A DNA stretch of 64,000 nt, taken from an uncultured Pseudomonadota bacterium. GTDB lineage: Bacteria; Oederibacteriota; Muellerivitia; Muellerivitales; Muellerivitaceae. Shown in pieces: positions 35,179 through 41,375 of the stretch. A program made the translations under genes and the position numbers. The DNA is taken from assembly GCA_963770835.1 (NCBI GenBank), contig CAVYRH010000004.1:352001-416000 (forward strand), given 5' to 3'. Positions within the stretch are counted from its first letter, which is position 1, and the number at the start of each line of letters is the position of its first letter. The notes below the pieces were generated by a model. The model was not told the origin of the DNA and did no database searches. It saw only the letters and a program-made list of their open reading frames with translations.

Positions 35179-35341
35179 AGGTTTTGAGCCCCCCATTTCC
35201 GGCCTGATTGCTTTGGCCATGCCCACCTATTTGGTTTTGATCCCCGCCGCCGTGAGCCTCATGGTTCCCGCAATCTTTAACATATCGATGCCCTTCAAAT
35301 TGAGACTACATTTGTGGTAACATTTTCCTGGAGGTGATTCC

Positions 35342-35575
35342 ATGAAAGTCGCATCAGTCCGTGATTTCAAAACCAAAGCCACCCAATTCCTGAACAGCGA
35401 GGAAGAAGTGGTCGTGACGCGCCACGGCAAGCCCATCGCCGTTTTGACCCACGTTAAATCCAATTCCGTGGATTCACTCCTGTTGGAACTTCGGGCCGTC
35501 CTTAAAAGCGCGGGGATTTCCAAAAAAGAAGCCCTTGCCGCCCTGGAGGAAGCCCGCCAAGAGGTCTACCGTTAA
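35342..35575 (+). CDS. Phd/YefM-family antitoxin
   Basis: SVRDFK, VVVTRHGKPIAVL; GGAGG RBS. Confidence 0.88.
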   Translation: MKVASVRDFKTKATQFLNSEEEVVVTRHGKPIAVLTHVKSNSVDSLLLELRAVLKSAGISKKEALAALEEARQEVYR

Positions 35576-35993
35576 GGTCATCCTGGACGCCAACATATTG
35601 GTTTCGGCGGCTTTCGGCGGGGTGCCGGCGCGGGCAACCGCGAGGGCTTTCCGGGAGGAAGTCTGGACCTGCCCTGAGATCAACCAGGAGCTCCTGGCCC
35701 TCGGGCGCCACCTGCCCAAGCGCCTTTCGCAACAACAGCTTTCCATTTGGAATTCCGCCCTGCTCCCGCTCATTTCGAGGATGAAAATAGGCCAGGCCGG
35801 CCGCCGCCTTTCCTTATCCCGTGACCCGAAGGATGATATCTACCTGTCTTTGGCCCGGGCTGTCCCCGCCGATTTCCTTGTAACGGGCGACAAGGACCTT
35901 CTTTCGATCCGCAAGGAAAAATTGGAGCCGGTTGGTTTGGGAAACTTGGGGGTCGTCACACCCAGGGAATTCCTATCACGGGTTGAGCCGTGA
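35535..35993 (+). CDS. PIN-domain toxin (TIGR00305/PIN_3-like)
   Basis: VILDANILVSA, RDPKDD, ADFLVTGDKDLL, VTPREFL; start codon uncertain. Confidence 0.88.
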   Translation: MPPWRKPAKRSTVKVILDANILVSAAFGGVPARATARAFREEVWTCPEINQELLALGRHLPKRLSQQQLSIWNSALLPLISRMKIGQAGRRLSLSRDPKDDIYLSLARAVPADFLVTGDKDLLSIRKEKLEPVGLGNLGVVTPREFLSRVEP

Positions 35994-36096: not shown

Positions 36097-36278
36097 CGGA
36101 ACTATGTACTTGGCACAGCAACCCAATAAACCCTCGCCCCTTGGGGGAGAGGGTAGGGTGAGGGGTGCTTTTAATTAGCTACATCACCCTCACCCCGGCC
36201 CTCTCCCCTCAAGGGAGAGGGAGTAACCACGGCTAAAAGGCCAGTCTTAAAACGTGCTTTGCCAAGTGCATAGTTCCG
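36097..36278. mobile_element. MITE (182 bp) carrying REP-like palindromes
   Basis: 24-bp TIRs CGGAACTATGYACTTGGCAMAGCA (22/24 match); 8-bp TSD AATTTCAA (36089-36096 / 36279-36286); internal CCCTCTCCC..GGGAGAGGG hairpins. Confidence 0.85.
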
Positions 36279-36707: not shown

Positions 36708-37638
36708 GTGCGCTTAAAGTATTTCCGTTTCCTATTGGCCGTTCCCTTGGTTTTGACAGGGATGGCAGGCAAGGCGGTTTCAAAACCCGTGTCGAAAACC
36801 TTCCAAAATCCCATCCTCACCGGCTTCCATCCCGACCCCAGCGTTTGCCGGGTGGGGGAGGATTTTTACCTCACGAACTCCACCTTCGAGTTCTTCCCGG
36901 GCCTTCCCATCTACCACAGCCGCGACCTGGTCCATTGGGATCAGGTCGGCAACGCCTTGGACCGGCCCAGCCAGCTTCCCCTTAAGGGGGCGACGGACTC
37001 CGGCGGCCTCTACGCGCCGACGCTGCGCTATTGGAAGGGGACCTTCTACCTGGTCTGCGATAACGTCAGCGGGGGAGGGAATTTCATCGTCACCGCCAAG
37101 GACCCGGCGGGCCCCTGGTCCGAACCGGTCTGGGTGAACGACTACGGGATCGACGGCTCCCTATTCTTCGACGATGACGGGAAGATCTATTACCACCGGG
37201 CGGGCGCCGACAACGGGAACGGCATTTCCCAGGGGGAATTGGACCCTTCCACCCTGAAGCTCAAGGCACCCTTGAGGAAGATCTGGGAATATCCGGGCGA
37301 ATGGAACGAAGGCCCCCATCTCTATAAGGTCAACGGGACCTACTATCTGATTTCCGCGACCGGCGGCACCGAAAGCCACCACCAGGAAGTCGTGGCCCGA
37401 TCCAAAAGCCCTTGGGGCCCCTTCGAATCCAGCCCCCACAACCCGATGCTGACCGAGCGTGACGACCTGAAAAGCCCCATCCAATGCGCCGGCCACGCAG
37501 ACCTGTTCAACGCCCCCGATGGAACCTGGTGGGCGGTTTTCCTGGGGACTAGGCCCCAAGACGGAATGTCCGTGCTGGGCCGGGAGACCTTCCTGGCGCC
37601 GGTGGAGTGGACGAAGGATGGCTGGCCCATCGTGGGCA
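36708..37638 (+). CDS. GH43 beta-xylosidase/arabinofuranosidase, exon 1 (catalytic propeller)
   Basis: NPIL.GFHPDPS, YAPTLRY, IDGSLFFD, EGPHLYK, GHADL, GRETFLAPVEW; interrupted by a group II intron. Confidence 0.9.
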
Positions 37639-38439
37639 TCGTGCCAGAGGAGGGTTTGCAGAGCCAGCAGGTGAGGGAGTAGGCCGATGAGGGTCAACCC
37701 AAGTCCTGACCAGGTAATCACCAGAGAGCCTGGAAGTCAGCCCCCGGCGTAGGATCGAGAGGTCCTGCCCGAAACGGGGTCATAAACCTCATTTAGTGAG
37801 GGAACAATCCAGCAGTCCGCAACATCAAGTGAATCCTGCCGCTTCGTGAATGGGACACCGAAAGGTGCAAGGGGATGCCGAGCCGCGTGTCTACTGGCGA
37901 AGGCCACGATCCCGCTGAAGAATCTGGTAGCAAGCGGGGCAAGTCCTCCGGAGTATGGGGAACGGAATGTTGGAAAGGCTATGCAAGCAAGCTGGGAGAT
38001 CCTACCCGCCAAAAGACTTGCCGCTATAAGGCTAAAACCGAAAAGAGGCAAGGGTGGGAGGAAGTCGGAGGGGGTCACAGTACCGATGAAGGGGTGGACA
38101 ACAAAACCACCCTGAGGGAAGGACCCCTGCTTCAACCATGTGTCTCAAAGAAGGTAGGCGCTGGAGCATGCCCCAAAAAGGGCCAACAACTCTGTAGTAC
38201 CAAAGCGCGAGGCCTTTGACAACAGGCACTATGCCGAGCGGCCAAGGGGGAAGTCGAACCTGTAAAGCCGCCGGAGGAGAGGTTGTCGGAAAGCCGTATG
38301 ATCGAAAAGGTCACGTACGGTTTGACGAGGGGGCGCTGGAAACGAAGTGATGAGGGAACCTCGTTGGGGCACGGAACCGGAAACGGGGAAACAGATCAAG
38401 GAACCCTCTGCACACCATCGCGCCAGTGCTCTACTCTGC
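37639..38439 (+). mobile_element. ORF-less group II intron (IIB-like), 801 nt
   Basis: DV AAGCCGTATGATCGAAAAGGTCACGTACGGTTT (38291-38323); DVI stem with bulged A38433; EBS1 TGTCTAC (37888-94) pairs with exon GTGGGCA; EBS2 ATGGG (37850-54) pairs with CCCAT; removal restores the frame. Confidence 0.92.
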
Positions 38440-39611
38440 AGGACCATCACGTGGCTTTGGAAATGGAAGCGCCCAAGCTCCCACCACCCCCTCGTATGCC
38501 GAAGCCCGGCGACCGTGAGAACTTCAGCGCAAGGGGGTTGGGGCCCAGGTGGCTCCATATCCGCAATTTCGACCCGAAGAATTTCTCGTTTGAGGAGCGC
38601 GAAGGCTACCTGCGTATTCGGGCCGCGAAGGATAGCCTCGACAACCGTTGGGAAGGACCGGCTTTCGTGGGCCAACGCCAACCCGCTTTCCGTTTCACCG
38701 CCCGCACCGAAATGGAATTCGCTCCCCAACAAGACGGGGAAGAAGCGGGTCTTTGCGTGAGGGCCAACGAGGGCAACCATTACGAGATCGGCATAAGGAA
38801 GTTCGAAGGGAAGACCCAGCTATTCGTGCGCAACCGGATTATGAACCGGGAATATCTGATGGCCCAAGAGCCGGTGGCCTTAGGCCCGGTCCAATTGGAG
38901 ATATCGGGGTCCGAGGAGAAGTACCAGTTCGCCTGGTCCGCCGACGGCAAAACCTGGTCCACCCTCGCGGTTTGCCCCACCGCCGACCTTTCCCGGGAAA
39001 AAGCCGGGGGCTTTACCGGTACCACCCTCGGCCTCTACGCCACCGCCAACGGTAGGGATTCCCAGGCCTACGCGGATTTCGAGTGGTTTGAACTGCGTCC
39101 CGGTGTTGCCCCCCAACAAGGCCCGCTTACGCGCCGCCCCTCACCGACCCCATTAACCCCCTCGGACCATTGGCGAATCCTCACGAACCGGGAGGACTAC
39201 CGGGACAAGGCGGGTCTGGATTGGTCCTGGGATGTGGGTTATTCGGGAGGTGAGACCAACCGGAGCTGGGGGGGTATCGGGGGGGCCACGGACCAGGAGC
39301 TTTTCCAGCACGAGCGCTTCGGCAAGGATTTCAGCTATACCCTTCCCGTCTTGCCGGGCAAGTACCAGGTCCGCCTCAAATTCGTGGAGACGGCCGTGAA
39401 GAACAAGGGGGAAAGGGTCTTCGACGTCCTCATCAACGGGAAAAAGGCCCTGACTGGTTTTGACATCCTCCAAGAGGCGGGTGGCCCCGATAAGGCCCTC
39501 GAGAAGACATTCCGGGACGTCGCCCCCGACGCCCAGGGACAGATCACCCTTCGGTTCATCGCGTCCGCCGGGGACGCCAAGGTCTGCGCCATCGAGATCG
39601 AGCGCCAATAA
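38440..39611 (+). CDS. GH43 exon 2: C-terminal concanavalin-like beta-sandwich plus malectin domain
   Basis: FVGQRQ, EEAGL, GGFTG.T.GLYA; LFQHERFG.DFSY.LPV.PG.Y.VRL.F.E...R.FDV.ING; spliced product 700 aa. Confidence 0.88.
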
Positions 39612-39637: not shown

Positions 39638-39844
39638 GTGGGCACAATTAGTTTGAGACTACCCGAAAACCTTCACCGTTCGGTACGGGCTTTGGCGGGA
39701 AAAGAGCATGTTTCGATCAATCAAATGATAACGTTGGCCCTCGCGGAAAAAATTTCGGCTTTGATGGCCGACGAATATTTGGGCGGCCGGGCCAAGCGCG
39801 GAGTTGGGCCTAAAGGCGGCCAGTGGATCAGTGAAGTATGTTGA
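39638..39844 (+). pseudogene. RHH/HicB-like antitoxin, probably truncated at the C-terminus
   Basis: TISLRLPENLH......E.VSINQ.I..ALAEK; sequence degenerates after RAKRG; no partner toxin. Confidence 0.6.
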
Positions 39845-40040
39845 TGTGGAGACATACCACGGGGACATAAGTGAGGTGGGCTACACCAAATTGAAAGAGC
39901 CGTTCCATTATCAAAAGGAATTCCGGTTGTCCCTAACATTCAATGACACCGCACCAGACGAATATATCCTTGATATTGGTTCTATTAGAGACATTGCCGA
40001 AACACAACTCCTGATCCAACCAAAAGCGGTGGTGGATTGA
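39804..40040 (+). pseudogene. C-terminal fragment of an unrelated hypothetical protein
   Basis: Lower GC; K...F.YQKEFR and LDIGSIRDIA motifs; no credible start. Confidence 0.45.
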
Positions 40041-40818: not shown

Positions 40819-41027
40819 GGCACCTCTAAAAATAACTTCAACGGCACCCCTCACCCTAATCTTCTCCCGCAAGGGGCGAGGGGAATGGGGAATTTGCAGG
40901 TCTTTTACACCTTCTCCCTTGAGGGGAGAAGGCCGGGATGAGGGTGGTTTTGGTAAGCAAAGGCACCCTCACCCTACCCTCTCCCCTTGAGGGAGAGGGT
41001 TTCTTATGCCAAGTGCACAGTTCCAAT
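40819..41027. repeat. Second, inverted relative of the 36097 MITE/REP element
   Basis: Ends TGCCAAGTGCACAGTTCC; same REP doublet in reverse orientation; flanked by 12-bp direct repeat TTTATATATAAG. Confidence 0.75.
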
Positions 41028-41375
41028 TTTATATATAAGCTGTTCATCCAAATCCTTGCTCGCGTCCCCAAATCCCTAAATACCCCGAATCTTTTACGCC
41101 CCTTTAAAAAAACAGCTTCCCGGCGAATCAGGTTAAACATTCGTAGGATTAGGCAAATGTTTTGCCTTCGGGGAAGCGCCAACCCAAGACATCGCGAAAC
41201 TGCGCGAGCAAATGGTGGGGGCCCGCGAGCAATTGGCAGGGGTTGGCGAGGCTTAATTGAAACAGCGGTTTCGAATGATATTCGTCATAGAGGCGGCCCC
41301 GGGCTGCCTTTACTATTTTATGGGGACGATTTTGAAAGGCCGGGGAGGTAAAATAGTCCTGATTCGAAGAAATCA

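Follow-up and report, generated by a model that had tools for sequence, protein, structure and literature searches.

ORF-less introns in ordinary bacterial genes have already been published (PMC2882425), and, according to a review, a bacterial genome that carries ORF-less introns will almost always encode a related IEP as well (PMC4424553). The ORF-less TeI3 introns of Thermosynechococcus elongatus are served by driver IEPs, and one of them, TeI3j, lies inside a glycosyltransferase gene; another intron from the same report, TeI4h, starts with U, and its mobility dropped to 0.5% when this U was replaced by G (PMC2882425). Integron cassette arrays harbour group IIC-attC introns as well as the IIB intron UHB.I2, the latter just downstream of attC, in the cassette orientation and with the ends UUGCG…GU (PMC7923331). 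Class C introns are characterised by the lack of an EBS2, a short EBS1 and the boundaries GUNYGCCNRGCAUGG…CCUACYCGAU (PMC4028801). A non-Watson-Crick contact between the first and penultimate intron bases has been described as predicted, with credit to a 1993 proposal, and in RmInt1 a penultimate G alongside G1 impaired the second step (PMC4238363). A 2023 structure paper has both G1 and U2 contacting domain VI and describes the demands on their identity as stringent (PMC10733145). First-U ends are nonetheless in print, since fungal SPAM3 has the ends UUGCG…GC (PMC8208691) and there are plant introns starting UUGCG (PMC6867995).

The locus considered here lies in a window of 64,000 nucleotides (the whole stretch of DNA analysed) from an uncultured bacterium, in which a GH43 gene with a malectin domain is split by an ORF-less group II intron. 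The presence of this intron probably reflects a recent ectopic retrohoming of a non-autonomous mini-intron, which would be tolerated and not regulatory. The features concerned are listed below by position in the window.

36708 to 37638, + strand: GH43 exon 1, with the whole Glyco_hydro_43 catalytic domain (Pfam PF04616, residues 32-307, model positions 1-288 of 288)
37626 to 37630, + strand: IBS2, CCCAT, pairing 5/5 with EBS2
37632 to 37638, + strand: IBS1, GTGGGCA, one base different from the usual target GTGGACA
37639 to 38439, + strand: ORF-less group II intron, 801 nt (sister copies 800 nt), with an extra A in a run at about 38175
37639 to 37643, + strand: 5' end UCGUG, a variant of GUGYG (G1 to U, U2 to C) in the register given by relatives
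37695 to 37827, + strand: part of domain I, Rfam group-II-D1D4-4 (RF02003), 57.8 bits against a cut-off of 49
37850 to 37854, + strand: EBS2, AUGGG, pairing 5/5 with IBS2
37888 to 37894, + strand: EBS1, UGUCUAC, in a hairpin loop, pairing 7/7 with IBS1 including two G-U pairs
38000 to 38062, + strand: domain II and J2/3 from the fold, with GGA at 38060-62
38063 to 38132, + strand: domain III, from fold and alignment
38168 to 38260, + strand: domain IV with a frameshifted remnant of an RT ORF start, about 1.2 kb being deleted
38291 to 38323, + strand: domain V, AGC triad at 38292-94, from Rfam and fold
38327 to 38436, + strand: long domain VI, in the fold of which A38433, 7 nt from the 3' end, is bulged
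38438 to 38439, + strand: 3' end GC, with a penultimate G instead of A
38440 to 39611, + strand: GH43 exon 2, with the GH43_C2 beta-sandwich (Pfam PF17851) and malectin (PF11721) domains; its first base, A, is the IBS3 position

The Pfam domains in both exons bear out the first-pass annotation, which had proposed a split GH43-malectin gene, an intron from 37639 to 38439 and a continuous product of 700 aa after its removal. Deletion of these positions in silico does yield 700 aa with no internal stop, and the N-terminus encoded by exon 1 is likely to be a signal peptide. An open frame is insufficient to define the junction, because 48 in-frame boundary pairs were tried and 16 of them likewise give 700 aa without a stop. 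The junction at 37639/38439 is instead fixed by intron-less orthologs, which read VGKDHH without a gap. It was found by pattern in 12 of 14 ortholog loci (13 rows), with no gap in any row, K at the junction in 7/13 and the exact VGKDHH in 3/13; the differing ortholog junction that would have spoken against the annotated boundaries is thus not seen. In none of these 13 rows is an intron present at the junction, and in the ortholog L040 the end of exon 1 runs straight into 20 bases identical to exon 2. Insertion was precise, in the sense orientation and without duplication. Exon 1 is 84-91% identical to nine close orthologs and 74-77% identical to three remoter homologs. The dN/dS comparison of the exons with two orthologs gives 0.05-0.14 against 0.55-0.80, the second ortholog covering only to 450 aa; this shows long-term selection on the exons, but with an insertion so recent it cannot date a later loss of function. 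The best solved match of intron-less L040 is BoGH43B (PDB 5JOZ, E 2e-135), which has the same catalytic domain and beta-sandwich, whereas the host protein has an extra C-terminal malectin domain.

Misplacement of a repeat copy into GH43 during assembly is extremely improbable. The intron is a multicopy repeat, and its extra A, missing from most sequencing-run contigs, is possibly a homopolymer error. Against an artefact, one DNA run (X2) has a contig spanning exon 1 and 28 intron bases and another (X1) a contig with 26 intron bases and exon 2, both falling below the 31-base bridging rule; X1 is possibly the source sample itself. No joint skipping the intron is seen in these two runs, and the boundaries exactly fit both the EBS1/EBS2 pairing and the ortholog junction.

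The surroundings of the gene offer several separate observations. A PIN-domain gene lies beside it at 35227-35993, with a small ORF upstream, and the flanking short ORF at 39638-39850 presumably resembles a ribbon-helix-helix antitoxin; together, these genes suggest a variable region. Purine/pyrimidine-rich inverted repeats can be read at 36120-36240, upstream of the GH43 gene, and at about 40860-41180, further downstream. Promoter and terminator scanning gave no more signals than in shuffles. An open frame through domains V and VI continues into exon 2, forming a 442-aa ORF (38283-39611) from TTG 38283 with GGAGG just 5' of it. Exon 2 could on this reading be translated unspliced from that codon, minus the signal peptide, although the arrangement is probably due to chance.

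By its anatomy, the insert is a group II intron whose exon recognition is IIB-like; it is neither class C nor of the shifted-site type. Both Rfam group II models, a check that had been proposed earlier, match above cut-off, the second being Intron_gpII at 38289-38439 (41 bits, cut-off 40). The AGC triad, the single bulged A38433, the two exon pairings and the absence of an RT/maturase ORF, all claimed in the first-pass annotation, are likewise upheld, with a remnant of only about 30 codons inside the intron. Thus, the domain V triad, the bulged-A domain VI, the domain I core and an EBS1-IBS1 pairing next to the 5' splice site are all present, as is the EBS2-IBS2 pairing expected of IIB-like introns, which shows compensatory changes in four relatives with other targets. 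No column could be assigned to EBS3 in the coordination loop from fold and alignment; the base directly after the intron is A in 33 of the 35 complete family members with flank in the genome loci. By established group II anatomy, G38060 would be the gamma partner of the last C. Folding of the whole intron (z = -2.5, 20 shuffles) missed stem I, and domain limits were taken from sub-folds and alignments. The long domain VI presumably resembles bacterial class F or unclassified En-minus lineages. Membership of class C (IIC, IIC-attC, HYER-type ORF-less) was rejected, the boundary consensus being absent and EBS2 present.

What the first-pass annotation missed is that the element is multicopy and that its ends are non-canonical, UCGUG…GC in place of the 5' GUGYG and 3' AY of group II introns; relatives keep G…AC. 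These ends mark a variant and not an exclusion from group II, as first-U exceptions are already in print. It is quite improbable that the intron instead starts at GUGCC (37641) behind a 2-nt 5' extension, as in C.te.I1 and some fungal rRNA introns. GTGCC is indeed found at 37641; the preceding TC belongs to the element, because empty insertion sites lack it. This placement was dropped once relatives revealed the GUGYG register, since they start GTGTG, GCGTG or GCGCG in the same register, that is, as ordinary GUGYG in which positions 3 and 5 are G, and the first base covaries with the penultimate base. In addition, known introns with a shifted site are described as lacking branch A and EBS2 (PMC4024640), both of which are present here; with no spacer in the relatives' register, membership of the C.te.I1 type was rejected as well.

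Searching the genome for sister copies, as had been advised, revealed 14 ORF-less intron 5' ends, comprising ten uninterrupted copies, two complete copies with an inner IS and two cut by contig ends. The ten uninterrupted copies are identical except for one column, the extra A of the window copy. Twelve of the 14 are placed at a 28-bp palindrome or its right half, one at a degenerate site and one in GH43; among the twelve, eight occupy the whole site and four lie behind a second intron family that splits it. The palindrome occurs at 85 sites (at most 6 mismatches), mostly in rows of like orientation in which a gene separates one site from the next, and the ORF-less family sits at the right edge of this palindrome separating single genes in arrays. 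In most array copies, a same-strand ORF ends shortly upstream. Of the 12 complete copies, excision restores a long ORF at GH43 only (320 + 389 codons), the next best being 78 + 72 codons on the opposite strand, and none of 36 other complete family members in genome loci splits a long ORF. Empty alleles of the other filled sites were not found among the sequences compared, the GH43 ortholog excepted, and the domain V pattern had no match in viral contigs. The description of a special intron in an ordinary metabolic gene is not supported, as this is one of 14 near-identical copies and no ortholog row has one.

The arrays themselves carry further elements. A second group II family (458-aa RT frame, 12 copies, GUGCG…AC) enters the same 28-bp site after the left arm, on C2, C3, C4, C5, C11, C16, C20, C23, C24 and C26 (e.g. 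L028), and both families stand in tandem at four sites. A gene judged from sequence to encode another IS110-like transposase, besides the IS110 described below, directly abuts the site at C3:45300 and C3:81893, which may make the site a target for three kinds of element. Different arrays repeat identical site spacings and flanks, as with 891 nt on C3, C12, C15 and C25. A 287-aa serine recombinase (C17:12042-12902), the sole Resolvase match in the genome, ends 18 bases from a 28-bp site. Tyrosine recombinases, with 12 matches in the genome, were considered as partners of the array and rejected, none being an obvious one.

Both EBS2 and EBS1 match the right arm of the palindrome, and the coding strand of GH43 reads CCCATCGTGGGCA and then A, which is one base different from the array arm. 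The GH43 site is in effect a 13-base mimic of that arm, followed by A. Sites outside the arrays that satisfy IBS2, IBS1 and A number three in 4.58 Mb, GH43 among them; the scan returned five rows, two of which are array halves at contig ends. EBS1 and EBS2 shift in step with the target in relatives, EBS2 doing so in G004, G035, G010 and the genome's own C2 relative, and the EBS1/IBS1 combination of GH43 is also occupied by an RT-encoding relative, L177, in G010. The rarity of such sites, the EBS covariation and the same IBS1 in L177 suggest that GH43 was hit as a chance mimic. Two G-U pairs in EBS1-IBS1 at GH43, against one at the usual site, and an EBS3 that could not be located count against the retrohoming explanation. 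Separately, a sub-lineage with altered EBS1 and EBS2 targets another intergenic motif ending TATGACA (L200, L201, L205, L210); in this genome it is found at C2:232157-234144 and C19:425475-427462, both downstream of a tRNA-like gene.

The genome contains 18 RT matches in two families, and six RT-encoding introns are closely related to the ORF-less intron, in agreement with the earlier proposal of a non-autonomous group II intron with a plausible maturase in trans. Both RTs tested (from two of the six introns) exceed the NCBIfam cut-off for group II RT/maturase and, as read from the alignment, have YADD and end without an endonuclease domain. Three RT introns are nearest in domains I-III (93%), and all three carry an identical IS110 just past the RT start, which separates it from the rest; the other three are free of the IS and 77-78% alike in domain I. 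This 1523-bp IS110 is present in six identical copies (C3:39990-41512, C26:617280, C26:878563, C2:200115, C11:94463, C20:1523), all at one domain IV position of this intron family. The closest helper may thus be disabled by IS110, a point against the preferred explanation. The domain IV remnant is frameshifted and, over 99 nt, matches the start of the ORF in a full-length G073 relative at 81% identity. Seven distinct ORF-less relatives, 74-95% identical and found in five genomes and two metagenome contigs, share the same short domain IV, and for this reason the ORF-less form is read here as a non-autonomous lineage of long standing. Among named relatives, those nearest to the RT belong to candidate phylum FCPU426, and the nearest RTs outside the phylum are 44-56% identical. 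Among these, in the Actinomycetota (L086-L106), most introns end right at the ATG or GTG with which the next gene starts. A 2672-nt family member (L185, G021) has domain III interrupted by other sequence, possibly a nested intron.

Taken together, recent ectopic retrohoming would have proceeded as follows. A deletion in domain IV removed the RT ORF, and the resulting non-autonomous family is present in identical copies. Array copies are presumably transcribed together with the cassette genes and their RNA spliced with a maturase supplied in trans, after which the RNA-protein particle would reverse-splice into matching DNA, and one stray event of this kind would have struck GH43. The altered ends are envisaged as functional, with U1 matched by the penultimate G in place of the G1·A contact. 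By its anatomy, the GH43 intron is likely to be still spliceable, and it is fairly likely that the GH43 transcript is spliced by the same route, restoring the 700-aa enzyme, because the RNA is the same as that of the copies that spread. Two metatranscriptome runs, X13 and X14, each with 0.10 of the words, contain intron relatives only and no exon cover, and are uninformative on splicing; an X13 RNA contig stops four bases before branch A, comes from one study only and was disregarded.

The same origin could also have left a GH43 copy that is not usefully spliced, with an insertional knock-out or truncation tolerated thanks to a paralog. This is unlikely, if worth weighing. No spliced RNA is seen, though X13 and X14 have no exon cover; the nearest maturases are broken by IS110; and the insertion is too recent for exon decay to be telling. 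Moreover, the paralog, 69% identical, with the same domain order and on a different contig, could mask a dead GH43 allele, which counts against the retrohomed intron being spliced to useful effect. The catalytic and pairing motifs, however, all show no difference from those of copies that spread, G010 has the same EBS1/IBS1 pairing in use, and IS-free RT introns are present in the genome.

It is very improbable that the intron is regulatory, with maturase-limited splicing toggling between a short catalytic product and the complete enzyme, which also has the beta-sandwich and malectin domains. The position of the insertion, three codons past the end of the Pfam catalytic domain, would allow it, as the unspliced mRNA is predicted to code for 324 aa, made up of the entire catalytic domain and 14 intron-coded residues; in addition, junction contigs in two DNA runs from different studies fit the intron, and no empty allele is seen. 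On the other side, the intron is in none of the ortholog rows, the copy-specific change amounts to one A in a run and nothing else, the site is accounted for by mimicry of the array arm, and a long ORF is interrupted by none of the 36 other complete members from genome loci. Gating of CAZyme expression, which the first-pass annotation had raised, is unsupported, because it needs conservation among orthologs or copy-specific change, and neither is present beyond that A. The two grounds for interest given there, rarity and possible regulation, both fall, and what stands as a real variant is the non-GU ends with a compensating penultimate base.

The 5' ends of the family fall in one register, GTGTG, GCGTG, GCGCG or TCGTG, each followed by CCAG. 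Complete introns in seven genomes (n=37) have U…G in 29 cases and G…A in eight, and complete metagenome copies (n=11) have U…G in four and G…A in seven, so that of all 48 members 33 combine first U with penultimate G, 15 combine G with A, and none is mixed. These reduce to 24 distinct ribozymes, 13 U…G and 11 G…A. The tally leaves out 16 of 53 genome-locus starts and 9 of 20 metagenome loci, in which one end is missing; G063 and G090 among the 16 may be chance matches, and L084 and L085 were excluded as possible duplicates. To control for shared descent, 100 variable columns from the 5' half were each paired with 45 columns of domains V-VI, and in one of the 4500 pairs, that of the first and penultimate base, the association is perfect, the next best reaching 0.48. 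A tree of end types needs three changes, at least two of them forced by well-supported branches, and the result is similar for each intron half. The number of independent switches is uncertain, as tree resolution is poor and the family has a mosaic make-up. Interior exchange between copies could spread a single origin of the ends; even so, no mixed pair survives. One relative (L197) is 95% identical to the window intron and likewise ORF-less, and its first and penultimate bases differ together. Comparison of flanks revealed no clear U-start among the remoter introns L086-L161.

We marginally favour a wider interpretation, in which a retrohoming lariat family without 5'-GU stays active through U1 and the penultimate G, the G·A and U·G states have switched more than once, the contact proposed in 1993 is supported, and GH43 is expressed through a UC…GC intron. 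If this holds, pairing of U1 with the penultimate G predicts why the G1 'repair' of TeI4h cut mobility to 0.5%. Within the literature reached, which took in few subscription papers and neither figures nor the curated intron database, there is no UCGUG-start intron, no covariation of ends within a family and no spreading family with both G1 and U2 lost; the rule may nevertheless be familiar to specialists. What is new here is the UCGUG…GC ends with covarying first and penultimate base, first-U introns as such being known already. Two natural end types in 95%-identical members make four end combinations assayable on one 800-nt ribozyme, and both the contact between intron ends and the strictness of 5'-GU become directly testable, with a parallel in spliceosomal GU-AG. 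For annotation, intron-split genes of this kind will be labelled pseudogenes, and boundary searches built on GUGYG…AY will misplace UCGUG…GC ends.

Among known systems, the present intron family is like TeI3 in having one domain IV deletion, retained ORF remnants and identical spread copies, most of them outside genes (PMC2882425). Splitting of a gene is an expected by-product of such spread, for which TeI3j offers the printed precedent (PMC2882425). TeI3 is mobilised in trans, a route that we infer for the present family (PMC2882425). The two differ in that TeI3 belongs to IIB1/CL with an endonuclease domain, which the RTs of the present family lack, and in that the latter targets a 28-bp cassette site and has U2 changed besides G1 (PMC2882425). 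With IIC-attC introns and UHB.I2 it shares insertion at recombination-site palindromes of gene-cassette arrays, although the 28-bp site is not attC and, unlike IIC-attC introns, the present family pairs both EBS1 and EBS2 with the site arm (PMC7923331). C.te.I1 of Clostridium tetani is also an ORF-less bacterial intron in a protein gene with a non-standard 5' boundary, but it is not mobile, has neither branch A nor EBS2, and has its splice site 8 nt upstream of GUGYG (PMC4024640). SPAM3 shares the first U and penultimate G (PMC8208691) and the plant UUGCG introns share the first U (PMC6867995); in the text of these two reports they are single cases that keep U2, their ends noted but not linked. 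In the present family, by contrast, both end states occur within one family and covary without exception.
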